From the sequence record OQ708376.1: a stretch of DNA of 64,000 bases; one strand, written 5' to 3'. Shown piece after piece: positions 3,533 through 60,030 of the stretch (the stretch's first letter is position 1; each line of letters starts with the position of its first letter). A model generated the notes under the pieces. It was given only the letters and a program-made list of their open reading frames with translations. It made no database searches and was not told the origin of the DNA. Made by a program: the position numbers and the translations under genes. The DNA is from Escherichia phage vB_EcoM_CRJP21.

Positions 3533-4144
3533 ATGAAAACTATCACTACTACTACTTATGTTATGGCTTTTTCTGAATTGAACGCAGAACAACAAACGTC
3601 AGCTATCGAACTGGTTCGGGAACGTGAAAAAAACTCAAACGACAATTATTTTTCTGAAAGTGAAATTGAATACTATAAAGAAACAGTACTACCGGAATAT
3701 GGCATTAATGACGCTGAAATACAATTCAGTGGTTTTTGGTCCCAGGGTGACGGTGCATCAATCAGTACTGACCACGTTGACGCAGTGAAGTTTTTACGCA
3801 AGGTAAGAGCATTAACTAAGTATCGCTCAATCCGTCACTTGCTGAATGAAGATGATTTGGCGATGAGTGTAAAACGTTCGCACTCCCACTACTCGCATGA
3901 GAATACTGTAAGCGGGTACATTGAATCGGCTTACACTGATTTAACCGCAAAACAAGAAACGTTAGTTAATGAGCTTGAGGAACTACTCACTGAAACTATT
4001 CGTGAATTGTCCCGCAAGTTGTACCGTGATTTAGAGAATGCATATGAGGATCAATTCACTACTGAAAACATTACGGCACTGATTGAGGGTAACGAATATC
4101 AATTCAATGTTATTGATGGCGTAGTAGAATCAATCGAATATTAA
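3533..4144 (+). CDS. hypothetical protein (203 aa)
   Basis: track ORF; RBS GAGGG 7 nt upstream. Confidence 0.7.
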   Translation: MKTITTTTYVMAFSELNAEQQTSAIELVREREKNSNDNYFSESEIEYYKETVLPEYGINDAEIQFSGFWSQGDGASISTDHVDAVKFLRKVRALTKYRSIRHLLNEDDLAMSVKRSHSHYSHENTVSGYIESAYTDLTAKQETLVNELEELLTETIRELSRKLYRDLENAYEDQFTTENITALIEGNEYQFNVIDGVVESIEY

Positions 4145-4156
4145 TTTAAAAAGTAC

Positions 4157-4184
4157 TTGCAAACTAAGTTTAAAAGCGTATAAT
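4157..4184 (+). promoter_or_regulatory. sigma70-like promoter (TTGCAA, 16 bp, TATAAT)
   Basis: consensus boxes. Confidence 0.6.
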
Positions 4185-4236
4185 ACTTTATATCGAGAGC
4201 GGGAATAGTTCCCGCTACTAATGAGGAATACTACAA

Positions 4237-4401
4237 ATGAATACTTTTACCTTCGCTCAATTGAACGCCCTGGATGTATTGTCTGATGCTTTGCGGGATG
4301 CAACTGAAAGCGGTTTATTTGACAATGTTGACATTCACCCTGATGTAATTAATAATTTTTGTGATGCTATCGCAGAAGTACTGGAAGATCTAAAAAAATA
4401 A
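4237..4401 (+). CDS. hypothetical small protein (54 aa, not in ORF track)
   Basis: hand translation MNTFTFAQLNALDV...; promoter + hairpin + RBS upstream. Confidence 0.55.
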   Translation: MNTFTFAQLNALDVLSDALRDATESGLFDNVDIHPDVINNFCDAIAEVLEDLKK

Positions 4402-4411
4402 TAGAAAGTAC

Positions 4412-4439
4412 TTGCAATTAGTTTTCAGTACTGTATAAT
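4412..4439 (+). promoter_or_regulatory. sigma70-like promoter with extended -10 (TTGCAA ... TGTATAAT)
   Basis: consensus boxes. Confidence 0.65.
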
Positions 4440-4489
4440 GGTTTACATCAAAGGGAGAAATGGTTCTCCCTGGTAATGAGGAAAATACA

Positions 4490-4711
4490 ATGGCTAATAT
4501 CACTACTCTTTCCCAACTGGAAGCACTGGTTAAATCTATGCGGGAACATGCTGACAAAATCGGCGTACAAGATCCAGCCGTTTGCTTCTGCGACGAATTG
4601 AATGATGATACCCTGGTAATAGCAGAAGTCCAGGACGTTTCTAACTATTCCTCGCGTTACACTGGCGGCGTAGCAAATAAAGGTGACTTCTGTTTATACC
4701 TTACAAAATAA
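4490..4711 (+). CDS. hypothetical protein (73 aa)
   Basis: internal ATG after leader hairpin 4453-4470; track start lies inside the hairpin. Confidence 0.6.
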   Translation: MANITTLSQLEALVKSMREHADKIGVQDPAVCFCDELNDDTLVIAEVQDVSNYSSRYTGGVANKGDFCLYLTK

Positions 4712-4712
4712 C

Positions 4713-4748
4713 AACGCGGGGAGATAATAACTCCCCGTTACTTTTTCA
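4713..4748 (+). terminator. rho-independent terminator (GC stem + T-run)
   Basis: CGGGGAG-ataataa-CTCCCCG then CTTTTT. Confidence 0.6.
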
Positions 4749-4777
4749 GTACTGAATCATTTAATAGACGGATCTCG

Positions 4778-4833
4778 GCACCCGGTGGGTTAGTGACTGT
4801 TTCGTCTTGATGTAGTAATTATGCCAGTACTGG
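4778..4833. repeat. R1 element copy 3
   Basis: GCACCCGGTGGGTTAG...CTTGATGTAGTAATTATGCCAGTACTGG. Confidence 0.5.
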
Positions 4834-4954
4834 ATGCACTTGTCAACAATTATTTTCCAAATACTTTTTATTAAAATACTTGCAATTAGTTTTTAAACGC
4901 GTATAATGTTTTGCATAGGGGGAGCGGTTCCCCTGGTAACTAAGGAATAATAAA

Positions 4955-5191
4955 ATGCTTGAACAAATCAAATCAACGTCTTCGAATGTAACGGGAACGG
5001 TAGCACACTTTACTAGTGATGAATCGCGGGGCGTTCCCTATTGTGCTGTACATGTAAACACTGAGGGTAACTACTGGTTTACGGTTTACGGATCATATTC
5101 ATTTGGACGGCCTGGACATCAAAAAATTCTGGATAAAGTACAACCAACGGGTAAAAATATCACTGCCGAAATGTTTTATAAAAAATCATAA
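4955..5191 (+). CDS. hypothetical protein (78 aa)
   Basis: track ORF; promoter + GGGGAGCGGTTCCCC hairpin + RBS. Confidence 0.65.
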   Translation: MLEQIKSTSSNVTGTVAHFTSDESRGVPYCAVHVNTEGNYWFTVYGSYSFGRPGHQKILDKVQPTGKNITAEMFYKKS

Positions 5192-5275
5192 AGTACTTGC
5201 AATTAGTTTTTAGTACTGTATAATATTTTACATCGCAAGGGGAAACGGTTTCCCCTGGTAACTAAGGATAATCAA

Positions 5276-5575
5276 ATGAAAATTGCAATCATCGCCCTGG
5301 CTTTATCTGTTTCCTCTTTCGCTGTTAATGCGTCATTAGATGTAAGTAGTGAAAAATTCATTCAGTGCACTGTTGCAATGACCGATGAAAGAACTGGCGA
5401 GATTGTATTAAAGGATTTAGAGATCCAGCCGGAAGCATTTAAAAACGGCCCGTTCCATGAAGAAGACGAAAACGGTAGCACGACAATTTATTATGATGCC
5501 AGTACTAAACGCGGTTCGGTCACTGTAATGGATACCGAGAAAGTAACTCATACCGGCGTTATTAATTGCCGTTGA
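5276..5575 (+). CDS. small secreted/periplasmic protein (Sec-type signal peptide)
   Basis: N-terminus MKIAIIALALSVSSFAVNA with AxA-like cleavage site. Confidence 0.6.
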   Translation: MKIAIIALALSVSSFAVNASLDVSSEKFIQCTVAMTDERTGEIVLKDLEIQPEAFKNGPFHEEDENGSTTIYYDASTKRGSVTVMDTEKVTHTGVINCR

Positions 5576-5596
5576 TAGATACTACGGGGTAACATC

Positions 5597-5827
5597 ATGA
5601 CTAAGCGAATTGTTTTACTTAACGAAAGCAGTACTACACAACTACTTAACGCCGTGCATTATGATATTGAAACGAGCGTTAATCTTATCAGTACTGTAGT
5701 TCTGTTGGACACTGGAAAGGTAGCCAATGATAAAGCGATTGCAGGTATACTAACGGATCTTGTGCCTGGTAGCAGTGCACCAATAACGTTAAATGGTAAA
5801 GTGTTTAATATTTTACTCACTGATTAA
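5597..5827 (+). CDS. hypothetical protein (76 aa)
   Basis: track ORF followed by terminator. Confidence 0.55.
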   Translation: MTKRIVLLNESSTTQLLNAVHYDIETSVNLISTVVLLDTGKVANDKAIAGILTDLVPGSSAPITLNGKVFNILLTD

Positions 5828-5833
5828 GTACAT

Positions 5834-5857
5834 AGCCCACCTGGTGGGCTTTTTTGT
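5834..5857 (+). terminator. rho-independent terminator
   Basis: AGCCCAC-ctg-GTGGGCT + TTTTTTG. Confidence 0.7.
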
Positions 5858-6060
5858 TTTTGTAGTATCGTAGTACTGAGATACTTTGAAAATAGTTTTA
5901 AAAAAGTAGTTGACATTACCACAGAAAAGCGTAGAATGTATTACATCAAGACGGGGAGCACTAAGTAGACCGCCAGTAAGTCGAACGAAAAACTGGACAC
6001 GTCGAGAAAACTTTGATACACTAATAAACGTAAACTAAACTTTAATTGAGGATTTATAAA

Positions 6061-6543
6061 ATGGCTAATGTAAAATCATTCATCAAAGCACTGGTAGCAA
6101 ATGAAACTAACGTCGCGGCTGAGATCCTGGCTGAACTGGATAACGATACCATGAAAGCGGTACGCAACAATTTTAACATTGCGTACAGTGAAGCTAAAGA
6201 ACTGCAAGCCAAAAAGGTAGCAGAACTGGAAGAACAGAAAAAAGCCCGTGAAGCAGAACTACAAGCAACAATTGAAAGTATTCAGGCGGCAGTGTCTGGA
6301 TTGGATCTGGAAGTGGTTGTAGAAATGGCACATAAAGCCCTGGCGGTTAAGTACGGTGAAGATAAGCCGGAATCTAAACCTAAAAAATGGATTCAAGAAC
6401 GTGTTACTGTAGTACTTGATAACGGTGAAGAACATTTGATTCCTGTACGCGGTAACTGCATTGCGGTAGTACTGGACGCTATCAAAGAAAGCGGTATGAC
6501 TCGCGAGGAATGGATCGAAGCTCATCGCAAAGTTGAAGCATAA
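6061..6543 (+). CDS. hypothetical protein (160 aa)
   Basis: ATG 8 nt after GAGGA; promoter TTGACA/TAGAAT at about 5908-5936. Confidence 0.65.
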   Translation: MANVKSFIKALVANETNVAAEILAELDNDTMKAVRNNFNIAYSEAKELQAKKVAELEEQKKAREAELQATIESIQAAVSGLDLEVVVEMAHKALAVKYGEDKPESKPKKWIQERVTVVLDNGEEHLIPVRGNCIAVVLDAIKESGMTREEWIEAHRKVEA

Positions 6544-6564
6544 CAATTAAAGTACTGAATCACT

Positions 6565-6592
6565 AGCCCACCTTAAACAGTGGGCTTTTTTG
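6565..6592 (+). terminator. rho-independent terminator
   Basis: AGCCCAC-loop-GTGGGCT + TTTTTT. Confidence 0.7.
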
Positions 6593-6610
6593 TGTCTGTA
6601 GTATTCCAGT

Positions 6611-6680
6611 CCACCAGCACCGCCTAGAATCGATTCTAACGCATTAAACTGATTATCTGATACATCGCCCTAGCTGGTGG
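6611..6680. repeat. inverted Chi-like octamer pair (CCACCAGC ... GCTGGTGG) flanking inverted R4 motif
   Basis: direct read. Confidence 0.55.
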
Positions 6681-6828
6681 CGTTAAGGTCGTTAGAATGC
6701 GATTGAGAGCGTTTAAAGTATTTTGCAAAAAGTAATAAAAAGTACTTGCACGATTAAGAGATTAGCGTATAATGTTTTACATCGAGAGGGGGAAACGGTT
6801 CTCCTTCCAAATCAAAGGAATCAAAACA

Positions 6829-7056
6829 ATGGCTATTATCATTACTCGCGTATCTGGTACTACTGGCAACGAACAAGTAGTTGCAGTCATTACTAACAAG
6901 GCAGGTGCGGAATTGCAAAATGCAATGAATACCTGGGCCGTTAATGAGTTCGGTCAGTGGGCAAGTGTAGCATACATTGAAACCTATCAAGTGCCGTCGA
7001 TTAGTTTAACTGATTTGGGCGTTGAGCGTATCCTTTGCCTGGATGAATTAAATTAA
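6829..7056 (+). CDS. hypothetical protein (75 aa), MAII-start paralog group
   Basis: internal ATG after promoter and hairpin; N-terminus resembles 7143 and 10054 genes. Confidence 0.6.
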   Translation: MAIIITRVSGTTGNEQVVAVITNKAGAELQNAMNTWAVNEFGQWASVAYIETYQVPSISLTDLGVERILCLDELN

Positions 7057-7142
7057 AAAAAGTACTTGCAAAGTAAATCGAATAAAGTATAATACATTAC
7101 ATCAAGGGGAGAAATGATTCTCCCCACTACAAGGAAACTAAA

Positions 7143-7355
7143 ATGGCTATCATTACTAAAATCAAAGTTAACAAGACTATCGTTAAACTGGCAGAAGTGA
7201 AAGAAGGTTATAAAGTATCTTGGTGCGGTATGTATCGGACGTTCGCAGATATAGATGATGCGATCAATTATTACAGTGACACGGTTAAAAACTTTGTTCG
7301 TGCTGATGTGGTTATGGCAGTGGCAACATATAAAGCAGCGAAAGAAAGTAAGTAA
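7143..7355 (+). CDS. hypothetical protein (70 aa), MAII-start paralog group
   Basis: track ORF; promoter + GGGGAGAAATGATTCTCCCC hairpin. Confidence 0.65.
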   Translation: MAIITKIKVNKTIVKLAEVKEGYKVSWCGMYRTFADIDDAINYYSDTVKNFVRADVVMAVATYKAAKESK

Positions 7356-7374
7356 AAATATTATCACAGTACTA

Positions 7375-7403
7375 TTGACATAGTTTGATAGTACTGGCAT
7401 AAT
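7375..7403 (+). promoter_or_regulatory. class-II promoter (AGTACT-flanked TTGACA, 17 bp, CATAAT), no leader hairpin
   Basis: same architecture at about 9990, 10258, 18047. Confidence 0.6.
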
Positions 7404-7446
7404 AGATTTTATCAAGACGACACATATTAATTTAAGGAATACTAAA

Positions 7447-7770
7447 ATGGCTAAAACTATCATCAACACCGTTTCCCTGGCTGCAATCCATGCAATCAAT
7501 GTTGACGGTAAACGTTGGACTGATTCATATGGCAATACTTATCATTCTTGTCATGTAAGCGTTGAACTGGATAACGGCTTGAATGATCTGGCGGTTGAAT
7601 CATTTACTTATGGCTATGAGGATGCATATCAACAAACGGCGGTATCACTCTTAAAGGAATCAGTAGACGGGCTTGATACTGTTGAAACCTCCCTCTATCG
7701 TTTGTGCAATGATCTTAATATCCCGTTGCATTGTACTGTACAGGATGTAAAACGTAAAAAAGATCTTTAA
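7447..7770 (+). CDS. hypothetical protein (107 aa), paralog of 14078..14401
   Basis: shared RWTD..GNTYHSC..ETFTYGY..DVKRKKD motifs. Confidence 0.65.
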   Translation: MAKTIINTVSLAAIHAINVDGKRWTDSYGNTYHSCHVSVELDNGLNDLAVESFTYGYEDAYQQTAVSLLKESVDGLDTVETSLYRLCNDLNIPLHCTVQDVKRKKDL

Positions 7771-7850
7771 TTAGCTTTACTTTATGCAGATACTTTGATA
7801 TAGTGTCTGCATAGGGGAAAGAAATTAAATCAACTTAAGAGGAAAGTAAA

Positions 7851-8120
7851 ATGAAAAATATCAGTACTTTAATCGATGCAGGTACACATGTTCGTCGGTC
7901 TATGGTTGCAACCAGTTCTACAAAACAAGTAGCGAGCGGTTATCTTGTATTTGTGCACGATGGAAAACTCCTGGAACGTTCAATCAATTTTGATGTTAAA
8001 AACAATTGCCGTTTTATTATCTTTCGCCGTGAACAATATAAAATTGATTTGCCAGCGAAGCCCATTAGCGGGGCGTACAACGTGCAATCATTGTTTGAGC
8101 GTCAACCTTACACCTATTAA
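7851..8120 (+). CDS. hypothetical protein (89 aa)
   Basis: track ORF; RBS AAGAGGAAAG. Confidence 0.55.
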   Translation: MKNISTLIDAGTHVRRSMVATSSTKQVASGYLVFVHDGKLLERSINFDVKNNCRFIIFRREQYKIDLPAKPISGAYNVQSLFERQPYTY

Positions 8121-8171
8121 TCAAAACATCGTTAGCGGTCGATTTAGGCCGCTTATATTGGGGATTATACC

Positions 8172-8444
8172 ATGAACGTTAATCAAGTACTGAATGAGAT
8201 CGAAAGCATCATTAAACCGATGAAGCGTACTGATGCTATGTTAACACCGGAAGAATGCCGCCTTTATGAGCGTTACAGCGTCGAACAAGTCCAGGCAATG
8301 GCTATGGCTACCCCAGCCGTTTCACCGCCTGAGAATGCGTTACAGGACGTTACAGGGGATTATATCATTAATCCAGTACTAGGGAAGATGACTGCAATCA
8401 CCGAAGATCAAAAAGACTACTTAAGCCAGTACTTAAAAGGTTAA
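8172..8444 (+). CDS. hypothetical protein (90 aa)
   Basis: track ORF. Confidence 0.5.
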   Translation: MNVNQVLNEIESIIKPMKRTDAMLTPEECRLYERYSVEQVQAMAMATPAVSPPENALQDVTGDYIINPVLGKMTAITEDQKDYLSQYLKG

Positions 8445-8449
8445 TTAAT

Positions 8450-8659
8450 ATGCTTACTGTACAGGATAAGATCGACATCTTAAAGGTTAATATGTATGTG
8501 ATTGATGCCGTACCTGGTAAAGTATTTGCATACGATGATAGTACTGTAAGCGATTTCTACTATAGCCAGGACGTGGGGGATCTTTCTGTACAGTCGGTTA
8601 TTGAAAACGTAGTTAATGCAGCGTATGAGCATTTACTTTCAAATAGTACTTGCAATTAG
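8450..8659 (+). CDS. hypothetical protein (69 aa)
   Basis: track ORF; next promoter overlaps its 3' end. Confidence 0.5.
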   Translation: MLTVQDKIDILKVNMYVIDAVPGKVFAYDDSTVSDFYYSQDVGDLSVQSVIENVVNAAYEHLLSNSTCN

Positions 8660-8727
8660 TTTTTAAACGCGTATAATGTTTTACATGAAGGGGAGAAATG
8701 ATTCTCCCCAATAACAGGAGAAACAAA

Positions 8728-8880
8728 ATGAAACAATACAACGCTCGGTTTGATGTTACTATCGGTAACGGCAAAGGTCAATTCTCTTTCAGTACTCGCC
8801 GCAGTTATACAGAAAACTTCCTGCGTAATTGTGCACTGACCGCCGCTCAAATTAAACACTATTTTCAGGCTAAAAAATGA
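8728..8880 (+). CDS. hypothetical protein (50 aa)
   Basis: ATG 7 nt after CAGGAG; promoter + hairpin upstream. Confidence 0.55.
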   Translation: MKQYNARFDVTIGNGKGQFSFSTRRSYTENFLRNCALTAAQIKHYFQAKK

Positions 8881-8966
8881 AATCATTAGCTTATTACAGT
8901 TCGGCCCTGGTCGGTGCATTGATCGCGGCATTGTTAGTAACCTATCTATTCTTTATGGTGATTTAA
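8877..8966 (+). CDS. small hydrophobic peptide (29 aa, single predicted TM helix)
   Basis: ATGA overlap with upstream stop; MKSLAYYSSALVGALIAALLVTYLFFMVI. Confidence 0.4.
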   Translation: MKSLAYYSSALVGALIAALLVTYLFFMVI

Positions 8967-9110
8967 ATGAATCCAACAGGTTTAAACTATAAAAGTTGTT
9001 CTGCATTTACGAAAGCAAATAAAGCGAATGCACGTAAAGCGAAAGTACAGGAATACATCAAGCAAGGCATGACGCGAAAAGCGGCGATTATAAAAGCTAA
9101 AAATAAATGA
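8967..9110 (+). CDS. small basic protein (47 aa)
   Basis: TAAATG coupling; K/R-rich. Confidence 0.4.
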   Translation: MNPTGLNYKSCSAFTKANKANARKAKVQEYIKQGMTRKAAIIKAKNK

Positions 9111-9202
9111 AAAAAGTGGTTGACTTCGGTCAGCCATTTTGTTATTATATATTCATTGAGAGATAGCTCACTAGCCCACAGGGTGCAGGAGTGTATCTAT
9201 TG
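9111..9202 (+). repeat. intergenic cassette copy A: hairpin-embedded promoter (R3) + R2 28-mer
   Basis: TTGACT-17-TATTAT inside inverted repeat, then AGCCCACAGGGTGCAGGAGTGTATCTAT. Confidence 0.55.
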
Positions 9203-9320
9203 TATGAGTATTGAGTACTGAAAACTATTTTTAAAAAGTACTTGCAAACTATCTCAATAAGCGTATAATGTTTTACATCGAAAGGGGAAACGGTTTCCCC
9301 TGGTAATAAGGAAACAAATC

Positions 9321-9662
9321 ATGACTATCTCAATTGCTCAATCTAACTTTGAAAATGAAATCATCGCCCAGGCACTGCGTTTAAATGATGGTCGGGCCGA
9401 AATTAATTACGGTTTCAATTCAGGCGGTTGCGAAAAATATCAGTACTTTGTAACGGCTGATGGCGGTGTCCTGGGTATCAATACAGTTATTGTAAACATC
9501 CAAAAAATTAATTTCAATGATCCAGACGATAGCCAGTTTTACATCACTGGCGTAGACGTGAACTATGAGGATGACTCACTAACTGATGATCACACTGGCG
9601 AGCGGTTAGAAAGTGCATACGGTGAAGATGATTATCAGTCCGGTCCAGAAGATTTCGAATAA
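9321..9662 (+). CDS. hypothetical protein (113 aa)
   Basis: track ORF; promoter 9242-9269 + GGGGAAACGGTTTCCCC hairpin. Confidence 0.65.
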   Translation: MTISIAQSNFENEIIAQALRLNDGRAEINYGFNSGGCEKYQYFVTADGGVLGINTVIVNIQKINFNDPDDSQFYITGVDVNYEDDSLTDDHTGERLESAYGEDDYQSGPEDFE

Positions 9663-9758
9663 TATAAAAAAATAGTTTGACAATAGATTATAGTACTGTA
9701 TAATAGTTTACATCAAGGGGAGAAAAACTTCTCCCCACTAACAGAGAGAGAAAACAAA

Positions 9759-9971
9759 ATGGCTAATATCCGGTCGAAATTAAAAAATGCAAAACAAGTT
9801 TTATTTTCAGATCATGAATACTTTAATAAAGATATTACAGGAGTTACAAGTATCAAGGAAGTAAAAGAAAAAACCGGCGTTTTGTGTGATGTGCGATTAG
9901 TTGGAACATTTGGGAATAACGTGCTATATCGCTGCGGTGATTACAATTTTACACTGACTATCATTAACTAA
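9759..9971 (+). CDS. hypothetical protein (70 aa)
   Basis: track ORF; promoter TTGACA...TGTATAAT + hairpin. Confidence 0.6.
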   Translation: MANIRSKLKNAKQVLFSDHEYFNKDITGVTSIKEVKEKTGVLCDVRLVGTFGNNVLYRCGDYNFTLTIIN

Positions 9972-10053
9972 AAATATTATCACAGTACTATTGACATAGT
10001 TTGATAGTACTGACATAATAACTTTTATCAACTACACTATTAAGGAATTAAAA

Positions 10054-10233
10054 ATGGCTATCATCGCAAAAACTGAAATCGTTGGTCTGGATTCTATCAT
10101 CATGACGTTTGAAGATCAAAAAGGTATGTATGTAGTTTCATATGGTGATTATGTTCGGGAGTATGAAACGGTAGACGAAGCCTTTGAAAGTTACATTCGC
10201 CAGGTGAATAAAGCATACGACGATTACCGCTAA
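10054..10233 (+). CDS. hypothetical protein (59 aa, not in track), MAII-start paralog group
   Basis: hand translation MAIIAKTEIVGLDS...; class-II promoter upstream; replaces track minus ORF 10100..10300. Confidence 0.55.
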   Translation: MAIIAKTEIVGLDSIIMTFEDQKGMYVVSYGDYVREYETVDEAFESYIRQVNKAYDDYR

Positions 10234-10332
10234 AATATATTACCAGTACTATTAAAGATATTGACAACGTTTGATAGTACTGTATAATAAGTTTTATCAA
10301 CAGTAGTTAACTTAACCTAAGAGAGAAATAAA

Positions 10333-10476
10333 ATGATCGCACTGGATTCATTCATCGACGCAGTACTGGCAAAAACTGGCGAGGATCTGACCGCAGAACA
10401 ATACGCAATGATCGAGCAATGCCAGCAAGACGGTAAATCGGTGAAAGATACTGTTAAGATTATCCGCAAGATGTAA
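10333..10476 (+). CDS. hypothetical small protein (47 aa, not in track)
   Basis: class-II promoter + RBS AAGAGAGAAA; terminator follows. Confidence 0.5.
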   Translation: MIALDSFIDAVLAKTGEDLTAEQYAMIEQCQQDGKSVKDTVKIIRKM

Positions 10477-10482
10477 GATTAT

Positions 10483-10512
10483 AGCCCACTGGTTAACGCT
10501 GGTGGGCTTTAA
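10483..10512 (+). terminator. candidate terminator hairpin (contains Chi octamer GCTGGTGG at 10498-10505)
   Basis: AGCCCAC-loop-GTGGGCT, weak T-run. Confidence 0.4.
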
Positions 10513-10581
10513 TTCATTACCCTATACAATGCCAGTACTAAACCGTTTATCTCGTTAGAATGCGTTACAGGACGTTTAACA

Positions 10582-10779
10582 ATGATTAGCATGAAATCAG
10601 TACAAAAACAAATAGAAACATTATCAAAAATTAAACGTAAACAGTACTCCTTAGAATATACAATCAATGGTAACTATCATCTAATGAAAGAGAATAATTT
10701 TATAGTCATTGATGAATCATTGCAAATCATTAGTATAGTACTGAAAGCATTAATCAATGACAGAAAAAAATTAAAATAA
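10582..10779 (+). CDS. hypothetical protein (65 aa; alt start 10591)
   Basis: track ORF preceded by R4 motif. Confidence 0.45.
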   Translation: MISMKSVQKQIETLSKIKRKQYSLEYTINGNYHLMKENNFIVIDESLQIISIVLKALINDRKKLK

Positions 10780-10874
10780 ACTATTGACAATATCATCAAG
10801 TACTGGCATAATACTTACATCAAGACGAGAACGTCACTAACCCATAGGGTGCACAAATGTAACTGTATAATATT

Positions 10875-10905
10875 GATCAAAAAATGATCTGATCAATACT
10901 TGATC
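10875..10905. promoter_or_regulatory. cluster of four GATC sites (three TGATCA palindromes) in 31 bp
   Basis: direct read; intergenic. Confidence 0.5.
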
Positions 10906-11110
10906 AATTTGCGTAAAGTAGTATAATTCTATGCAGTTGGTTAGACGAAAGGTTATGATTAGTAGTGCAAGTGTATAAAAATTTTCATGGTGTATCGTTT
11001 CGCACATATGGGGATGAATATGTGGTATCATGTGGATTGGAAAAAGTAAGAACAAGTAATATTATTGTCGCATTACAGTACTATAGTATTTTTATAATGA
11101 GGTTAAAATA

Positions 11111-11368
11111 ATGGCTGTAGGATTCGCGAAAGATGGGGCCGAACAAGACGAGATTAACGCAGTGATTCAGGCCGCCGTTAACCACGCTAGAAAGCAAATT
11201 AACGCACAAATAGAATCACTGATACATTGCCTCGACTGCGGCGATATAATCCCTGAGAATCGACGCCAGGCCGTTAAGGGATGTAAGTACTGCATAACTT
11301 GCCAGGAGGATCATGATAGTACTTTTAAACGTCCCCCGCGTAATTGTTGGCATAGATCTATGAGATAA
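11111..11368 (+). CDS. TraR/DksA-family C4 zinc-finger protein
   Basis: CLDCGDIIPENRRQAVKGCKYCITC matches CxxCG-x3-IP-x2-RR-...-C-x2-C signature. Confidence 0.65.
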   Translation: MAVGFAKDGAEQDEINAVIQAAVNHARKQINAQIESLIHCLDCGDIIPENRRQAVKGCKYCITCQEDHDSTFKRPPRNCWHRSMR

Positions 11369-11431
11369 AAAGTATTGACAGTACTGAAAGATAGTGTATA
11401 ATGTTTTATATCTTAACTGAGGATAGAAATC

Positions 11432-11788
11432 ATGGGAATACAACATATCACGCGTACTACTGACAATGGCGAGATCACTGGTTATCAAGTACAGGGCAAA
11501 GTAGCACAATTGCAGTACTGGTTTGTTAAACGTGGAATCATTGCACCGGATCTTGATTATGACCGTGTAGCGTTTATTGATTCTCTTTATGTTGATCCTG
11601 ATAGTCGGGGCAATGGTGAAGGTAACGAATTAATGAATGCCTTTATTGATGCCGCCGATGATTCAGATTGTATCATTTTAGAATGCGATACGGGAGAAGA
11701 TAACGCCTTTAATCTTAAAGAATGGTACGAAGGTTTCGGATTCGAGGTACTGATCGATAGTGAATATCCTATCATGATTTTATCATAG
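11432..11788 (+). CDS. putative GNAT-like acetyltransferase (small)
   Basis: RGNGEGNELMNAFIDAA resembles GNAT motif A; assignment tentative. Confidence 0.4.
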   Translation: MGIQHITRTTDNGEITGYQVQGKVAQLQYWFVKRGIIAPDLDYDRVAFIDSLYVDPDSRGNGEGNELMNAFIDAADDSDCIILECDTGEDNAFNLKEWYEGFGFEVLIDSEYPIMILS

Positions 11789-11866
11789 TACTTGCATTTA
11801 GTTTTCAGTAGTGTTATAGTACTTACATCAAGGGGAAACATCTTCCCCTACTAAGAGGAAATGAAA

Positions 11867-12055
11867 ATGGAAAACTTATCAAGTATTTTAGTACAAGATG
11901 ATTTCGGTAATCCTGGAAGTGCTATCATTGTTCGGGGTAATAAAGCAACATTTGTTATTGCTGGTGGACCTGTACAGCGTAGCATTAAAAACAATGCCGT
12001 TACTATTAATAATGTACGCTATCGCTTAGATAAAGAATTGATTCATAAACTGTAA
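11867..12055 (+). CDS. hypothetical protein (62 aa)
   Basis: second ATG, 7 nt after AAGAGGA. Confidence 0.55.
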   Translation: MENLSSILVQDDFGNPGSAIIVRGNKATFVIAGGPVQRSIKNNAVTINNVRYRLDKELIHKL

Positions 12056-12082
12056 TATTAATTTAATAGAGGATAACAATAA

Positions 12083-12406
12083 ATGTACATTCATACTACT
12101 ATCACAAAGGAAGTCCGTTGCCAGTTCGAAAGTATTCCGGGCGTATGTTTCATCACTGGTACGTTTTCCCCTGGTGATCGTGATAATCCAGTACTGTTAC
12201 AATTACGCCATCCATCATGGGATAAAGCATTTGATCTACCGTTGAATGAATTCGCAACTACTGCTGAAAAGTACATTAAAAATATTCGCGAGAATGATCG
12301 ACTATTCATTAATGCTTTTAGTGATTCCGCGTTAAGCGAGATCCACGGTGTATTGGTTGCAATCATGGAATCAATGGAGAAAACTAAATTCAAACAAGGT
12401 GAATAA
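12083..12406 (+). CDS. hypothetical protein (107 aa)
   Basis: track ORF; RBS AGAGGA. Confidence 0.6.
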   Translation: MYIHTTITKEVRCQFESIPGVCFITGTFSPGDRDNPVLLQLRHPSWDKAFDLPLNEFATTAEKYIKNIRENDRLFINAFSDSALSEIHGVLVAIMESMEKTKFKQGE

Positions 12407-12412
12407 AAACTA

Positions 12413-12440
12413 TTGACAAGATAATCTAGTACTGTATAAT
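12413..12440 (+). promoter_or_regulatory. sigma70-like promoter with extended -10 (TTGACA, 16 bp, TGTATAAT)
   Basis: consensus boxes. Confidence 0.65.
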
Positions 12441-12489
12441 AAGTTACATGAAGGGGAGAAATGATTCTCCCCACTGAGAGGAAAGAAAA

Positions 12490-12702
12490 ATGCAAGGTCA
12501 ACTAATCGTTCGTAAATGGTCTGATACTAACGCTAAACCGTGGGATGTACAATACATCGGACCGGATGGGGTATCACGTTATCAGCCTGGCGTAACGCAT
12601 AGTACTGAGCAATATGCCGCCGCTCACCGCGAACGCCTGTTAGAATCCATGAAACAGGGATACGGTGAAAAATTCATTCAAGATCATTGGCTGAAAGATT
12701 AA
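12490..12702 (+). CDS. hypothetical protein (70 aa)
   Basis: track ORF; promoter + hairpin. Confidence 0.6.
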   Translation: MQGQLIVRKWSDTNAKPWDVQYIGPDGVSRYQPGVTHSTEQYAAAHRERLLESMKQGYGEKFIQDHWLKD

Positions 12703-12719
12703 TATAAGGAGTACAGCTT

Positions 12720-12812
12720 ATGCAAATGAATCCGATGATTATTGTTTTAGCTGTACTTATGATCATTCATGCAATAGTAGAAGTATTAACGCAATCAGGA
12801 GTAATAAAATGA
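12720..12812 (+). CDS. small hydrophobic peptide (30 aa, predicted TM)
   Basis: strong RBS TAAGGAG 8 nt upstream; MQMNPMIIVLAVLMIIHAIVEVL... Confidence 0.5.
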   Translation: MQMNPMIIVLAVLMIIHAIVEVLTQSGVIK

Positions 12813-12982
12813 TTCAAGTAGAATTATCAGTACTGAAAGATCTGTTTTATCGGTTAGGTACTACTGGCGAGTATCCTAAAAGTGATACCGCAAAACTTTT
12901 TGTATCACTCGACTTATGGCAACGCGAACAATTAGTAATGTCCTGGCGTAAAGGTAAAGCAGATAGCGAGGTGAAAGCATGA
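12809..12982 (+). CDS. hypothetical small protein (57 aa, not in track)
   Basis: ATGA coupling to upstream peptide. Confidence 0.45.
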   Translation: MIQVELSVLKDLFYRLGTTGEYPKSDTAKLFVSLDLWQREQLVMSWRKGKADSEVKA

Positions 12983-13128
12983 AAGAATTCTTATTCGAAG
13001 TAGTGTTTCAAGGTGTCGGTAGTAACCAACTGATTCGCTCAAGTGGTTACAATGTTAACCAGGCATGGAATAACATTAAACAAATGTACCCGAACGCTAT
13101 CACCTATCGCAACCCGAAACAAGTTTAA
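12979..13128 (+). CDS. hypothetical small protein (49 aa, not in track)
   Basis: ATGA coupling. Confidence 0.45.
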   Translation: MKEFLFEVVFQGVGSNQLIRSSGYNVNQAWNNIKQMYPNAITYRNPKQV

Positions 13129-13137
13129 AAATAATTG

Positions 13138-13234
13138 AAAAAGGGATTGACTCCGGTCAGTCCCTTTGCTATTATATACGCATAGAAACAAATCAGCCCA
13201 CAGGGTGCATAAATGTATCTATTGTTTGCTGGTG
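13138..13234 (+). repeat. intergenic cassette copy B (R3 hairpin-promoter + R2) followed by Chi octamer 13227-13234
   Basis: near-identical to copies at 9111, 16409, 18667. Confidence 0.55.
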
Positions 13235-13299
13235 GCTAGTACTGAAAACTATTTTTAAAAAAGTACTTGCATTGTACTTAGAATCAAGTATAATGTTTT

Positions 13300-13375
13300 A
13301 CATCAGGACGGGGAACGAAACAAGTAACCCCGTTAAGTAGTCCAGGAGTAAGACATAAGAAAACCTCCCCTGATA
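13300..13375 (+). ncRNA. candidate structured leader / small RNA (copy 2)
   Basis: about 90 percent identical by eye to 3390..3465; between tandem promoters. Confidence 0.35.
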
Positions 13376-13443
13376 AAATAGTTTGACAATAGAAAGTAAA
13401 CGAGTATAATACTTACATCAACCACTGATAAGGAAACATTAAA

Positions 13444-13719
13444 ATGCGGATTCTACTGACAGCTAACGAAATCGAACAAGTACTGACTACTAACCTGGAA
13501 GACTGGAAACGTGAAGCAGATATCCAGGCGGTTCAACGGCTTAACGATGAGTTAACGCCGGATGACTTAAGCAAGATTGTAGATCCTCAATTCTACGAAG
13601 ATATCCACGACACCGCGTTAAGCGTCGAGGATGTACTAGATAAGCACTACATTGATATTGATTTGCAGGTTTACGGTCGTAAAAACTTTATCACTATTCA
13701 CGACATTTACAATAATTAA
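13444..13719 (+). CDS. hypothetical protein (91 aa)
   Basis: track ORF; promoter TTGACA-16-TATAAT at 13382-13409. Confidence 0.65.
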   Translation: MRILLTANEIEQVLTTNLEDWKREADIQAVQRLNDELTPDDLSKIVDPQFYEDIHDTALSVEDVLDKHYIDIDLQVYGRKNFITIHDIYNN

Positions 13720-13805
13720 GTATTGACAAAGTATCTTAGTACTGTATAATAGTTTACATCGAGAGGGGGAATGGTTCCCCTCCTAACAAAGAGAGAGAAA
13801 TAAAA

Positions 13806-13988
13806 ATGGCTAAATGCACTATCTGTAAGAAAGAAATCGTATTAGTTCCAAGTGCCCGTGAACGTGCCGCTCGGTTCGGTGGCAAAGCGTCAGACTATAC
13901 AAAAATGTTTACTACCCATGCAGCTTGCCAGGTAGCAAAACGTTCACAAGAAAGCGTAGAATTAATGCGTAAACTTTCCAAAAAATAA
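13806..13988 (+). CDS. hypothetical protein (60 aa, Cys-containing)
   Basis: track ORF; promoter + GGGGGAATGGTTCCCCTCC hairpin. Confidence 0.6.
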   Translation: MAKCTICKKEIVLVPSARERAARFGGKASDYTKMFTTHAACQVAKRSQESVELMRKLSKK

Positions 13989-14077
13989 GTATTGACAAAG
14001 TATCTTAGTACTGTATAATAGTTTACATCAAGCGAGGGGAATGGTTCCCCTCCTAACTAAAAGAGAGAGAAATAAAA

Positions 14078-14401
14078 ATGGCTATGATCCTTACCCAGAA
14101 AGTAGAACTGAAAATTGTAACCTCCTTTGACATTAAAGTTAATCGCTGGACTGATCGGAACGGTAACACTTACCACTCTTGCTACGTGTCCGCGTTAATT
14201 GGCGACCGCTGGGAAGACTTGGGACATGAAACCTTTACTTACGGTTACGGTACACAAGGAGAATACACGGGCTTGGAGATCATTAAAGAAACCGTTATAG
14301 GTTTCAACCCGAAAGAAAAAGTTATTCACCGCATCGAAAAAGAGATTAACAAAGAAATAACAGTTCGCTACTACGATGTAAAACGTAAGAAAGACATGTA
14401 A
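14078..14401 (+). CDS. hypothetical protein (107 aa), paralog of 7447..7770
   Basis: promoter/leader duplicated from the 13727 copy. Confidence 0.65.
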   Translation: MAMILTQKVELKIVTSFDIKVNRWTDRNGNTYHSCYVSALIGDRWEDLGHETFTYGYGTQGEYTGLEIIKETVIGFNPKEKVIHRIEKEINKEITVRYYDVKRKKDM

Positions 14402-14496
14402 TAGAATCCATTTAAAGTACTATTTGACATTGCCCAGATAGTACTTTATAATAGACTCTAACTTGTAGTACTAACTCAACTAATAGGATGTATACC

Positions 14497-14892
14497 ATGA
14501 TTACTAAATTCTACGCTACCCGTGAAGCTGCCCGTATTGTTGCACGCGAGGAAGGAGCAGCATTTAAAGACATGGGCAAAGATGCACCGAAAGGTCAACG
14601 CTGGGCCGTACAGTTCAAAGAAATCTCTGATATCGTGAATTCACCGGAGCCAGTACTAACAGCAGCAGAACTAAAACGAGCGGATTTACTGGCGGCAGTA
14701 CTTAACGCACAAGATGAATTTATCGCTGATTCTGATATCAAAGTACAGACAAACCATACCGCTTGGACTCACGCGGATCACCTGGCAAACCTTAAGCGTC
14801 CAAGTGAACTGGTTCGCAACCAGAAAGAGATCCGACACGACCGTAAGGGTAATCGTGTAACAGTATACAGTAAACGCCGCCAGGTTATCTAA
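14497..14892 (+). CDS. hypothetical protein (131 aa), paralog of 2520..2786
   Basis: ATG 8 nt after TAGGA; shared motifs. Confidence 0.6.
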   Translation: MITKFYATREAARIVAREEGAAFKDMGKDAPKGQRWAVQFKEISDIVNSPEPVLTAAELKRADLLAAVLNAQDEFIADSDIKVQTNHTAWTHADHLANLKRPSELVRNQKEIRHDRKGNRVTVYSKRRQVI

Positions 14893-57370: not shown

Positions 57371-57402
57371 AGGACGGGATTTGTTATCTCGTCCTTTTTT
57401 TG
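57371..57402 (+). terminator. rho-independent terminator
   Basis: AGGACGGGAT-ttgtt-ATCTCGTCCT + TTTTTTT. Confidence 0.7.
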
Positions 57403-57413
57403 TCTGGAGATGT

Positions 57414-58268
57414 ATGAAACTTTATCTAATCGTTGACTACAATAAGGATTATGCTGGTAACTTCACCGAAGATTCGGATGGATATTGCACATCGACTAAT
57501 GTCAATGTACGTATCAGTAATGCTCATGAACATGAATCTTGTAAAAATCTAAAAGATTTTATCACATACCGAGCATTTGAAAAGAACTTCTGCCGCAGTA
57601 GATATTCGAAGTTTGAGTACCCGTTAATTGATGTTCCTGATGATTTAATGTTCCAGTTAATGCTAACTGGAGTTCAAGATTATGATTACATAGCATATAA
57701 TCATATTACTAAGAAAATTTATATTGGTACATCATCACATGACACTTCTATGTATGCATCATGCCCAGATGATCGAATGAATGATAGAAAATCATACTAT
57801 AGTGGATCAGTTGGTTTAAATGATTCATTAAATGAAAATTTATTCTTTGAGTATGTTTATGATTACCATCATGAGAAAAAAGAACGTGAAGATTACTGTA
57901 TAGCAATTGATAGTACTAATGGGTATGAAGACGTGAAAGAAGCACTTATGCCGTACATTATTGAAAAGTACTACAAAGATTTTCAGTACTGTAGTAATTT
58001 TCTAATCAGAAATTCTATTATAATCGGTCGCCAATCTAGTGCATACTCTCAGTACTATAATGATTCACCAGTAGCATCGGCAAATGAAATGTGTGATATT
58101 TTACAAATTCCACGTGAAGATATGGCATTCATTTTTACATCTTTTATTGAAGATGATGAGTTGTATATTAAAAATAAACACCGTTTCATGCCAAGCAAGA
58201 TTGAGGTTATTCGAAGTTTTAGTGTTGATATACTAACAAATTTCACAGAAAAAACCGAATATAACTGA
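57414..58268 (+). CDS. large divergent family-2-like protein (284 aa)
   Basis: core DLMFQLMLTG; track start inside terminator, so restarted at internal ATG. Confidence 0.5.
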   Translation: MKLYLIVDYNKDYAGNFTEDSDGYCTSTNVNVRISNAHEHESCKNLKDFITYRAFEKNFCRSRYSKFEYPLIDVPDDLMFQLMLTGVQDYDYIAYNHITKKIYIGTSSHDTSMYASCPDDRMNDRKSYYSGSVGLNDSLNENLFFEYVYDYHHEKKEREDYCIAIDSTNGYEDVKEALMPYIIEKYYKDFQYCSNFLIRNSIIIGRQSSAYSQYYNDSPVASANEMCDILQIPREDMAFIFTSFIEDDELYIKNKHRFMPSKIEVIRSFSVDILTNFTEKTEYN

Positions 58269-58296
58269 GACAAATGATAAGTTAATGATATAATAT

Positions 58297-58331
58297 AAGG
58301 TGACAACATAATATGTTAGTCACCTTTTTTT
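58297..58331 (+). terminator. rho-independent terminator
   Basis: GGTGACAACATA-at-TATGTTAGTCACC + TTTTTTT. Confidence 0.7.
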
Positions 58332-58860
58332 AATCCTGAAAGGTTCCCATAAGGAAATGATTAAAAGCCTAATCCACTCGAAAATGTAGAGGGTAGATGA
58401 GTAGTCCTTTCAGTACGAACAGCAGATGAAACCCGTTAGATGATGGCATAGTTTGAACCACTCACGGCAATGCGGCTGTATAAAGAACTCCAATAGGATA
58501 AAGAGAGTTCCTCGATAGACATATAAGGATCGCACCTTACCAATTATCTAAGGGAGATTTCATAAGAAATATGCGGTCGGAATTATACAATATAGTTGCG
58601 TCCAAATTTTGTGAAATCAAATACAAGTACTGGTCATATGGTATTTGTATTATGTGTCGGGATGTTTAAGACCGACGACCGTTGCTACAAGAACCGCGAT
58701 AGAGAGAAACAGAGCAACCCGCTTTCGTCTCGTAAGAGAATTCGTGATATGAACTATGTGAAGGCCACCAGCGTCAAACTTTTTTGTTCTTTCCCCTGCG
58801 GGGGGATGAAATATGCTCAAGCAAACCCCGTCAATATTAATTAAAAGAAAATAGTACTTG
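58332..58860. other. non-coding GC-richer island (candidate structured RNA or decayed gene)
   Basis: no convincing ORF; several GC-rich hairpins (GTCGGGatgtttaagaCCGAC, CCCCTGCGGGG). Confidence 0.3.
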
Positions 58861-58871
58861 TAGAATTAGAC

Positions 58872-59492
58872 ATGCGTAGCATGATAATTCTACTGATGTT
58901 GATGCAATCAACGTCACGTATATTCATTGATGTTTCCATAGGAATAATGATGGCATTTATTAGAAAAGAAAAAACTGTTACTTATAAAACTTTGAATTTT
59001 GATGATTGCATTAATCAATCACAAGACGAAGATATCTTTACTGGATATGTGGTTATTAAAGAAAAAGGATGCATTTCTTATATAAAGGAATTGCAAAATG
59101 GAATTGAAGTAACTTCAGTTAAATTACTTCCTACTCAAAAACCAACAATATCAAAAGCCCAGTATGGTAATTATTTTGAAGAAAGATATAGTAATAATTC
59201 AATAAGTGTTAAGGCTCATATTATTAAAGGAGAACTAGAAGGAGAATATAGAAAATACAACCCACAAGGAAAATGTGTTTGGGTTAAATACTTCAATTCA
59301 GGATATGATGTAACATCTGAAATTATAGAGTTCTTAGGTTTAAAATGTACCCCTGAGACTATTCACGATTACAAGTTCAATACTGAAGAAGAGTTTAATC
59401 TGATGATGCGTTACGGTTCACATTTTAAATTTTTATATGAATATAACATTGACAGTAGTACTTTTGATAAGATAGTACACAACTGTCTCTAA
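58872..59492 (+). CDS. hypothetical protein (alt start 58950)
   Basis: track ORF; hydrophobic N-terminal extension may not be translated. Confidence 0.5.
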   Translation: MRSMIILLMLMQSTSRIFIDVSIGIMMAFIRKEKTVTYKTLNFDDCINQSQDEDIFTGYVVIKEKGCISYIKELQNGIEVTSVKLLPTQKPTISKAQYGNYFEERYSNNSISVKAHIIKGELEGEYRKYNPQGKCVWVKYFNSGYDVTSEIIEFLGLKCTPETIHDYKFNTEEEFNLMMRYGSHFKFLYEYNIDSSTFDKIVHNCL

Positions 59493-59508
59493 CAAAAGGA
59501 ATTATATA

Positions 59509-60030
59509 ATGTCGAAGAAGGATGCTTCGAAAAAACATTCAGTACATTTTAGTACTGGAAAAGATAACTGGACAACTCCAAAGGATTTCTTTGAAGATTT
59601 GGATGAACTCTGGGAATTTACACTAGATGCAGCATGTGTCAAAGAAACTGCATTGTGTGATAATTTTTTCACTCCAGAAGATGATTCACTGTCACAGGAT
59701 TGGGGAAATAATATAGTTTGGTTGAATCCACCATATAGTGACTTGAAAACTTGGTTATCCAAAGCAGTAGATGCATATAATAACGGGGCAACTGTAGTTA
59801 TTCTTGTACCCTCAAGAACCGATACAATTGCTTTTCAGGATTATGCTGCTAAAATATGTGATTGTATTTGTTTTATTAAGGGAAGATTGAGATTTGGTAT
59901 ACCAGAAGAACCCGATAAGAAAACAGATTCAGCACCATTTCCTTCGTGTCTGATAGTACTGGATAAGTACTTAACCACTGCTAAAATCAATTATCTTAAA
60001 TCTCTTGGGTTGGTGATGAAGAATTTATGA
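59509..60030 (+). CDS. phage-type DNA N6-adenine methyltransferase (Dam-like)
   Basis: WTTPKDFFEDL N-terminal motif and NPPY catalytic motif. Confidence 0.7.
   Translation: MSKKDASKKHSVHFSTGKDNWTTPKDFFEDLDELWEFTLDAACVKETALCDNFFTPEDDSLSQDWGNNIVWLNPPYSDLKTWLSKAVDAYNNGATVVILVPSRTDTIAFQDYAAKICDCICFIKGRLRFGIPEEPDKKTDSAPFPSCLIVLDKYLTTAKINYLKSLGLVMKNL

Follow-up and report, generated by a model that had tools for sequence, protein, structure and literature searches.

To our knowledge, bacteria and phages have few large RNAs whose complex folds are conserved, namely RNase P RNA, group I and group II introns, transfer-messenger RNA (tmRNA), OLE, GOLLD, ROOL, and raiA. Each known large ornate RNA has either given new biochemistry or remains an open puzzle. 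ROOL and GOLLD, for example, form RNA-only homo-oligomers (PMC12286853). RNA sequencing (RNA-seq) of large virulent phages has additionally revealed abundant transcripts without open reading frames (ORFs), namely ncRNA001-004 of phage PA5oct (PMC7318152) and an abundant transcript of about 800 nt in ICP1 (PMC7567579). Here, we analyzed a stretch of 64,000 nucleotides from Escherichia phage vB_EcoM_CRJP21 (record OQ708376.1; called the window below), and we have little doubt that its positions 58297-58860 hold a conserved structured RNA. By megablast of positions 57400-59800, the window comes from an Asteriusvirus jumbo phage with 99.8% identity to Escherichia phage SHEFM2K and 98.7% identity to phage 121Q.

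A covarying fold with a closing helix and a pseudoknot

We scanned IMG/VR, metagenomes, and GTDB genomes by pattern and filtered the results with nhmmer, which provided 77 distinct full-length homologues that could be aligned. The conserved structured core of about 465 nt lies at 58369-58833 on the plus strand, as do all features of the RNA given below, and the profile match spans 58358-58842. Across the alignment, invariant blocks alternate with variable stems, the former including CACGGCAAUGCGGC, GAUAGACAUAUA, UAAGGGAG, CGACCGUUG, GAGAAACAG..CAACCCGCUU, CGUCA (twice), and GGGGGGAUGAAA. RNAalifold was run on 41 sequences and called 64 pairs, with compensatory changes in 38, while a covariation scan that was independent of folding recovered the same helices as well as a 6-7-bp pairing of the H9 loop with the strand just 3' of H11. 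The model tested on the 77-sequence alignment had 91 pairs in 17 helices, including this long-range pseudoknot as 6 bp, and was compared with partners shifted by 1-3 columns and with 500 shuffles. Standard pairs occupied 92.3% of cells (39-45% for shifted partners), changes on both sides were seen at 71 of the 91 pairs (32-39 for shifted partners), and the covariation score was 0.474 (0.07-0.11 for shifted partners). On each of the five measures used, all 500 shuffles fell short of what was observed. Compensatory substitutions beyond the controls support a conserved secondary structure, with a core of at least 15 covarying helices that is closed by a 5'/3' helix and locked by the pseudoknot.

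The helices are spread over the entire core. H1 (58369-58396) is followed by the 5' strand of the closing helix (58398-58400, pairing with 58831-58833), and then by H2 (58401-58416), H3 (58419-58423 with 58475-58479), H4 (58433-58436 with 58464-58467), H5 (58485-58510), H7 (58524-58539), H8 (58556-58562 with 58612-58618), and H9 (58620-58651). The 3' part of the core contains H10 (58656-58676), H11 (58695-58699 with 58742-58746), H12 (58702-58726), H13 (58728-58739), and H14 (58787-58810). Two of these had already been singled out as GC-rich stem-loops in an earlier note made from the window's letters alone: GTCGG...CCGAC at 58656-58676 is H10, in which 5/5 pairs covary, and CCCCTGCGGGG at 58793-58803 is the tip of H14. 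In the pseudoknot, UCAUAU in the loop of hairpin H9 (58634-58639) pairs with AUAUGA directly 3' of H11 (58747-58752); 100% of its cells are paired and all six pairs covary, for example AU in 39 and GC in 38 sequences at one pair and CG in 48 and UA in 29 at another. An alignment of the four paralogous copies in 121Q showed a matched pseudoknot pair private to each of them (AUUGCAU, UCAUAU, AUCGAAU, and AUUGUAU). The pseudoknot joins a hairpin loop to a 3' junction, a topology that differs from that of RNase P P4 (CR-I/CR-V). With respect to strand, G-U cells outnumbered A-C cells in the model (403 versus 196), which favors the plus strand, and promoters and T-tracts lay on the plus strand throughout.

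Several other pairings and likenesses were considered and set aside. An alternative register of the closing helix (GAUGAG with CUCGUC) has one partner position that varies freely opposite an invariant A, and a pairing of CCUUA with the invariant UAAGGGAG was dropped for UAAGG with CCUUA, which covaries. By eye, parts of the core resembled the sarcin-ricin loop, and a few short strings slightly resembled RNase P CR-IV/CR-V; in both cases the bases covary within a local helix and the corresponding models gave no match. A scan for covarying palindromic loops, the signature of kissing dimers, returned only invariant AT-rich tetramers.

Two variable elements were seen within the fold. The module UACAAUAUAG(A/U)UCCGUCCAAAAUUUGA occurs inside H8, inside H13, or in both, depending on the copy (both in 121Q copy 3), at alignment columns ~391-420 (window 58584-58610) and ~565-600, and it behaves like a structural cassette that fits either site. 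In many paralogues, this copy not among them, the RNA itself contains a covarying hairpin with T6-7 after it, placed immediately 5' of the final 70 conserved nucleotides (alignment columns ~645-680; the example in 121Q copy 4 is at retrieved-stretch 2567-2584). This internal hairpin may generate isoforms of two lengths, short and long, or may be no more than an expansion hairpin.

The gap that houses the RNA extends from the upstream ORF's stop (58268) to the start of the next gene (58950, as annotated in G17 and 121Q). In the ORF listing it contains only short overlapping ORFs, and the equivalent gap carries no annotation in 121Q, G17, PBECO4, GAP32, or Serratia phage BF. The earlier note's description of 58297-58860 as gene-free was thus borne out. 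It had also judged an 82-aa ORF within the region (58596-58844, plus strand) unconvincing, and rightly so. The ORF is intact in this phage and its closest relatives, and overlaps the covarying helices; its frame contains several stops in GAP32, BF, Kaldavass, Munch, and other orthologues and is broken in every distant orthologue, so that it is not a gene. No residual frame or protein homology shared with the orthologues, as would mark a pseudogene, was found.

Searches against known RNA families gave no assignment. Rfam 15 (4,227 covariance models) yielded no match at the gathering threshold on the whole window, and permissive searches (of the region at E up to 10 and of seven diverse copies at E up to 5) yielded nothing relevant, the matches being chance-level, to unrelated small RNAs, all outside the core, and none of them recurring. 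ARAGORN found no transfer RNA (tRNA) or tmRNA gene in the window. There was no match to the models of ROOL (RF03087), GOLLD (RF01998, the window also being without a tRNA gene), or group II introns (domain V/VI and D1-D4), nor, even at E up to 10, to the bacterial type A/B and archaeal models of RNase P RNA. The group I intron model (RF00028) was likewise unmatched; the ORFs on either side are complete, and each of the four 121Q copies lies between genes. Of the checks proposed in the earlier note, the Rfam/Infernal search therefore returned no family, which points to a new family and not to a lack of structure, and the comparative alignment with related phages uncovered a covariation-supported structure and no frameshifted gene. 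The RNA-seq-defined non-coding RNAs of PA5oct, a related jumbo phage, are not homologous to this RNA. Genome papers on these phages cover promoters and terminators, not the RNA, and the element is not described in the searchable literature, beyond which a very recent or paywalled report may exist. As far as the searched resources show, it looks like a new RNA class.

Copies in Rak2-like phages and in integrative islands

The core was recognizable by BLAST in 61 Rak2-like phage genomes, with 4-5 matching places per genome, and was present in 28 of 28 Asteriusvirus genomes covering at least 80% of the query. Among close relatives, the island is 96-100% identical where the 2.4-kb surroundings are 87-97% identical (96.3% versus 87.8% in WPEC5, and 100% versus 96.3% in E9.1). 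In other genera, as represented by GAP32, CBB, Serratia phage BF, fHe-Yen9-04, Munch, Kaldavass, and Xanthomonas phages XbC2 and XaC1, nucleotide identity is 66-75%, whereas the protein encoded downstream, the gp416 homologue, retains only 35-42% amino acid identity across the same genera. The RNA is under stronger constraint than the neighboring proteins encoded by the flanking coding sequences (CDSs). The locus is syntenic across genera, and this copy lies 5' of the same downstream operon in five of them. A profile search identified a divergent full-length homologue in RaK2 itself (149 bits, E 1e-46), again syntenic and 5' of the gp416 homologue and dam, so that the family spans the Rak2-like clade. 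Within IMG/VR and the INPHARED phage set the family is otherwise limited to Rak2-like jumbo phages.

A profile built from seven homologues was run on the window and on the rest of the 121Q genome and located four copies in 121Q, all on the plus strand, at 90324-90783, 192834-193318, 247507-248041, and 326673-327148; the second of these is the locus studied here, placed via its IMG/VR copy. Each occupies a gene-free gap of about 0.7-0.8 kb, and the copy at 326.7 kb is flanked by two minus-strand genes. The paralogue search found no further copy within the 64-kb window, the others being elsewhere in the genome. The maintenance of several paralogous copies predates the divergence of the genera.

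Short "hypothetical protein" CDSs, some of them on the minus strand, are annotated over copies of the RNA in several GenBank records, namely PQ390715 (SHEFM2K), PP886230, PQ330092, PQ464595 (Kaldavass CDS0607-0609), OR258281 (XaC1_451), LT960551 (g047/g048), and NC_025447 (gene 516). These CDSs are almost certainly spurious, and the finding corrects the genome annotations concerned.

A scan of GTDB revealed eight bacterial loci with full-length homologues (265-304 bits), including loci in a complete Serratia fonticola chromosome, Silvania, Enterobacter chinensis, and Buttiauxella. At most of these loci the RNA lies 3' of a tyrosine integrase or a large serine recombinase, in the same direction, and is convergent with a cI-like repressor. 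One metagenomic island (contig ERZ773156 NODE-17, retrieved-stretch 3733-14625) has the order serine integrase, three unknown ORFs, RNA, cI/cro, a 286-aa protein, an LprI-like protein, an invertase, an unknown ORF, and KwaB-KwaA. The last two form a complete Kiwa defense system (KwaB at 13083-14033 and KwaA at 14008-14625, both on the minus strand), and the island contains no recognizable structural or replication genes. In Escherichia coli LR-29-1 (NZ_AP027515), a full-length homologue (retrieved-stretch 8988-9554) resides in an island of about 10 kb beside ffs, together with an integrase disrupted by IS3 and with DUF4326, DUF488, and dual-OB proteins; PGAP/RefSeq annotates nothing over the RNA. 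By eye, with no tree computed, this copy stands next to Eneladusvirus-type copies in the 77-sequence alignment and has insertions in common with them, a placement that suggests horizontal transfer. A tblastn search for a protein common to the island neighborhoods and 121Q recovered only copies of the RNA, one DUF4326 protein, and one weak match (E 3e-4). The RNA has thus been exchanged with small integrative islands of Enterobacteriaceae.

Transcription, function, and competing explanations

A sigma-70-type promoter, GAGACA-16-TGATATAAT (58267-58294; scanner score 10/12, with a TG extension), precedes the core. It consists of a -35-like GAGACA (58267-58272), a spacer of 16 nt (13 nt to the TG), and the extended -10 element TGATATAAT (58286-58294), with a predicted transcription start near 58301. 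A TGnTATAAT box with a GAGACA-like -35 element precedes all four 121Q copies. More widely, the extended -10 element TGnTATA[AC]T was found 19-67 nt 5' of the core in 67 of the 73 family members with sufficient upstream sequence for this check, so that the RNA has transcription signals of its own both here and in these homologues. In the island copies, about 14 nt separate the -10 box from the first helix, a spacing that fixes H1 as the 5' limit of the functional RNA. Antisense promoter-like sites were seen in two copies only.

Between promoter and core lies an imperfect hairpin, AGGTGACAACAT/ATGTTAGTCACCT, followed by T7 (58298-58331). This was read from the sequence, a simple terminator scanner having skipped it because the stem is imperfect; ARNold calls a terminator at the same site in the G17 record, in agreement with the strong terminator that had been proposed at 58297-58331. 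The hairpin is the upstream gene's intrinsic terminator, yet it is located 3' of the RNA's own promoter, and in the RNA it would be a 5' leader stem-loop or attenuator. The order of promoter, hairpin, and T-run is preserved in the copy-2 orthologues of GAP32, BF, and Kaldavass. RaK2 swaps the order, with the terminator first and the promoter second (retrieved RaK2 stretch 1737-1810). A variable 5' leader (58332-58368) then contains an AAUCCUG motif, which recurs in other copies as seen in the alignments and upstream sequences. On the 3' side, a tail hairpin GUAGAAUUA...UAAUUCUAC (58860-58893), the inner stem of which (CAUGC/GCAUG) closes a GUA triloop, is, on the plus strand of the window, the sole c(GNA)g triloop hairpin whose stem reaches 5 bp or more. 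Similar CG[AU]AGU hairpins are present 3' of the core in 39 of 74 homologues, RaK2 and island copies included. Of the earlier picture of a region set between two terminators/promoters, the 5' side held, and neither a terminator nor a promoter was found at the 3' edge.

In our assessment the locus is probably an independently transcribed gene for a structured non-coding RNA of about 0.5-0.6 kb, and not merely a leader, an origin, or a relic. A structured non-coding RNA was one of three candidates in the earlier note, and it is strongly supported by covariation at 71/91 pairs together with the pseudoknot, by conservation above that of the neighbors, and by the promoter in 67/73 family members. 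Host RNA polymerase would transcribe the RNA rightward from about 58301, early in infection. Copies of the RNA lie between opposite-strand genes, converge with cI, or stand 5' of unrelated genes, which makes a trans-acting, stand-alone RNA the most economical reading. Accounting for these contexts, we lean toward an RNA that acts in trans as a stand-alone folded particle over a leader of a messenger RNA. Because there is no conserved partner gene, the RNA would work alone or with host factors conserved across Gammaproteobacteria, and it may bind, sequester, or act on a conserved host component.

The multi-copy state in lytic jumbo phages and the presence in defense-carrying islands suggest an RNA-mediated role in phage-host or phage-island conflict. 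The form of this that we favor, though it is doubtful, is a decoy or ribozyme-like effector directed at a conserved host component, proposed because there is no conserved neighbor protein and because the RNA is multi-copy and common to lytic phages and otherwise unrelated defense-carrying islands. By analogy with ROOL and GOLLD, the RNA might instead self-assemble into an RNA-only complex, which we consider fairly unlikely. A broader proposal, which we think less likely than not, is that a new large ornate RNA class begins with this RNA, which would be a core, multi-copy part of Rak2-like jumbo phage biology, with an activity of its own (as a ribozyme, a sponge for host factors or immune signals, or a self-assembling particle), and that cI/cro defense islands captured a copy to exploit this activity or to hinder jumbo phages.

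Several points weigh against the account of an independently transcribed, stand-alone RNA. The minimum free energy z-score is -1.16, which is not unusual (-0.03 for the other strand); with thermodynamic stability unremarkable, the case for structure rests on covariation. The strand test is only moderately asymmetric, with standard pairs at 92.3% versus 89.2%. For every family member we infer the transcript, its ends, and its abundance from sequence, the searchable literature having yielded no RNA-seq of a Rak2-like phage. The hairpin and T7 right after the predicted start should stop many transcripts. For this copy, no clear terminator was found between the core and the next gene, so that read-through to the downstream genes, and thus a cis role for this copy, has to be entertained. 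Finally, the sequence names no target, ligand, or catalytic activity, and the decoy or effector mechanism is drawn from genomic context only.

Other explanations would give the conserved RNA a different purpose. ColE1 RNA II and the T4 oriF and oriG transcripts form R-loops that prime DNA synthesis, and the structured transcript of each copy might do the same, with the downstream hairpins as single-strand initiation sites. Such an origin primer would accord with the 4-5 scattered copies per genome and with the phage's T4-like replisome, of which UvsW and RNase H are part. A strong sigma-70 promoter is found about 0.5 kb 5' of the c(GNA)g-hairpin region in nearly every copy, d(GCGAAGC)-type hairpins occur at phage origins, and the length of the RNA is near the ~550 nt of RNA II; the small cI/cro islands, moreover, have no recognizable replication protein and could use a protein-independent origin. 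However, the invariant unpaired blocks and the covarying pseudoknot, kept across genera, surpass the needs of known origin transcripts, and the bias of G-U over A-C points to selection on the RNA fold itself. The cumulative GC skew of the stitched 121Q genome tracks gene orientation only, with no feature at the four loci, and no conserved AT-rich unwinding element was found 3' of the core. On balance an origin primer is quite unlikely, and GC skew and the palindrome scan did not discriminate among a decoy or effector, self-assembly, and an origin primer. A cis-acting leader, that is, a giant 5' untranslated region, riboswitch, or attenuator of the gp416 homologue, dam, and cytidylyltransferase, would explain why this copy is co-oriented with the downstream operon and stays 5' of it in five genera, and it would also fit the lack of a clear terminator before the next gene and the terminator-like hairpin and T-run inside the RNA of several paralogues. 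It is nevertheless improbable: 121Q copy 4 sits between two opposite-strand genes, the island RNA is convergent with cI, the genes downstream at other loci are unrelated, and the sequence 3' of the internal hairpin is as conserved as the remainder.

The remaining two explanations treat the region as a traveler or as a ruin. Several copies within genomes, the occurrence in unrelated integrative islands, and the alignment of the E. coli copy beside Eneladusvirus-type copies would suit a selfish or mobile RNA-level element or its remnant, such as an ORF-less, intron-like ribozyme that spread to intergenic sites and islands. Against this, neither the group I/II intron models nor those of any ribozyme family matched, the copies lie between genes and the ORFs on either side are complete, and orthologous positions hold steady across genera, with the RNA in all 28 of the Asteriusvirus genomes that have at least 80% query coverage. 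A promoter accompanies nearly every copy; no terminal repeats were noticed while reading the flanks, although no dedicated search for them was made. We consider a mobile element very improbable. The remnant of an inserted element suggested in the earlier note is unsupported as such, since cross-genus synteny argues against recent insertion; the multi-copy state and the presence in integrative islands do mean that the family moved between elements in the past. The note's last candidate, a decayed protein gene of which the 82-aa ORF or a frameshifted ancestor remains, could draw on the presence of that ORF in this phage and its closest relatives, and is rejected, with a chance we take to be negligible. 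No frame is conserved, that of the ORF being destroyed in every distant orthologue, the nucleotides are more conserved than those of real genes, including the flanking CDSs, and the substitutions are compensatory in helices and not periodic.

The base composition of the region is less distinctive than its fold. The guanine-plus-cytosine (GC) content is 39.5% at 58297-58860 and 42.2% in the RNA core, compared with 31.8% and 28.4% in the flanking ORFs. The window mean is 34.2% (standard deviation 3.8), which places the region about 1.4 standard deviations higher, with 9.5% of same-size windows equally or more GC-rich. The claim that the region differs in composition from its flanks therefore stands with respect to the flanking ORFs, but the difference is not extreme for the window. 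The "AT-rich array" with which the region had been contrasted is probably a lengthy series of ORFs, each about 60 aa, in tandem: positions ~1-1500 of the window correspond to 131-135 kb of 121Q, where such a series comprises genes 249-265 and beyond, and looks like a paralogous small-protein array. Just upstream of the window-equivalent region, at 117-131 kb of 121Q, are about a dozen minus-strand paralogues of an RCC1-like "regulator of chromosome condensation".

Comparison with known RNAs

Relative to other large RNAs of phages and bacteria, this RNA stands out for unusually clean comparative support, and its promoter is defined. It is carried by cultured E. coli phages, among them 121Q, PBECO4, G17, and phAPEC6, and a related copy is in an E. 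coli chromosome, which makes it open to experiment now.

ROOL and GOLLD have much in common with this RNA. All are large (0.5-0.8 kb), with many helices and with invariant unpaired blocks alongside covarying stems, and all are borne by phages or prophages, have no dedicated partner protein, and are open as to function. They differ in that this RNA matches neither covariance model in sequence or structure, is present in 4-5 copies per genome where ROOL and GOLLD have one, and is found in proteobacterial jumbo phages, whereas ROOL and GOLLD occur in Firmicutes or rumen elements. GOLLD is usually beside tRNA genes, unlike the RNA in this tRNA-free window, and the present RNA is without the covarying palindromic loops that would suggest kissing dimers.

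The likeness to ColE1 RNA II and to the T4 oriF and oriG transcripts consists of a transcript of about 0.5 kb (here predicted), a sigma-70-type promoter, and hairpins downstream; folded structure matters in ColE1 as well, and T4, too, has several such loci per genome. This RNA, in contrast, is far more deeply conserved and has a tertiary pseudoknot. The PA5oct and ICP1 transcripts are similar in being long non-coding RNAs from gene-free gaps of large virulent phages, and theirs are highly expressed. No conserved structure is reported for those transcripts, and PA5oct ncRNA001 and ncRNA002 gave no profile match and contained none of the seven conserved motifs searched for.

RNase P RNA, the group I and II introns, and tmRNA belong to the same size class and, like this RNA, combine a 5'/3' closing helix with a long-range pseudoknot and with joining regions that are invariant. 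Their Rfam models were unmatched at E up to 10, ARAGORN finds no tmRNA, and this RNA interrupts no gene.

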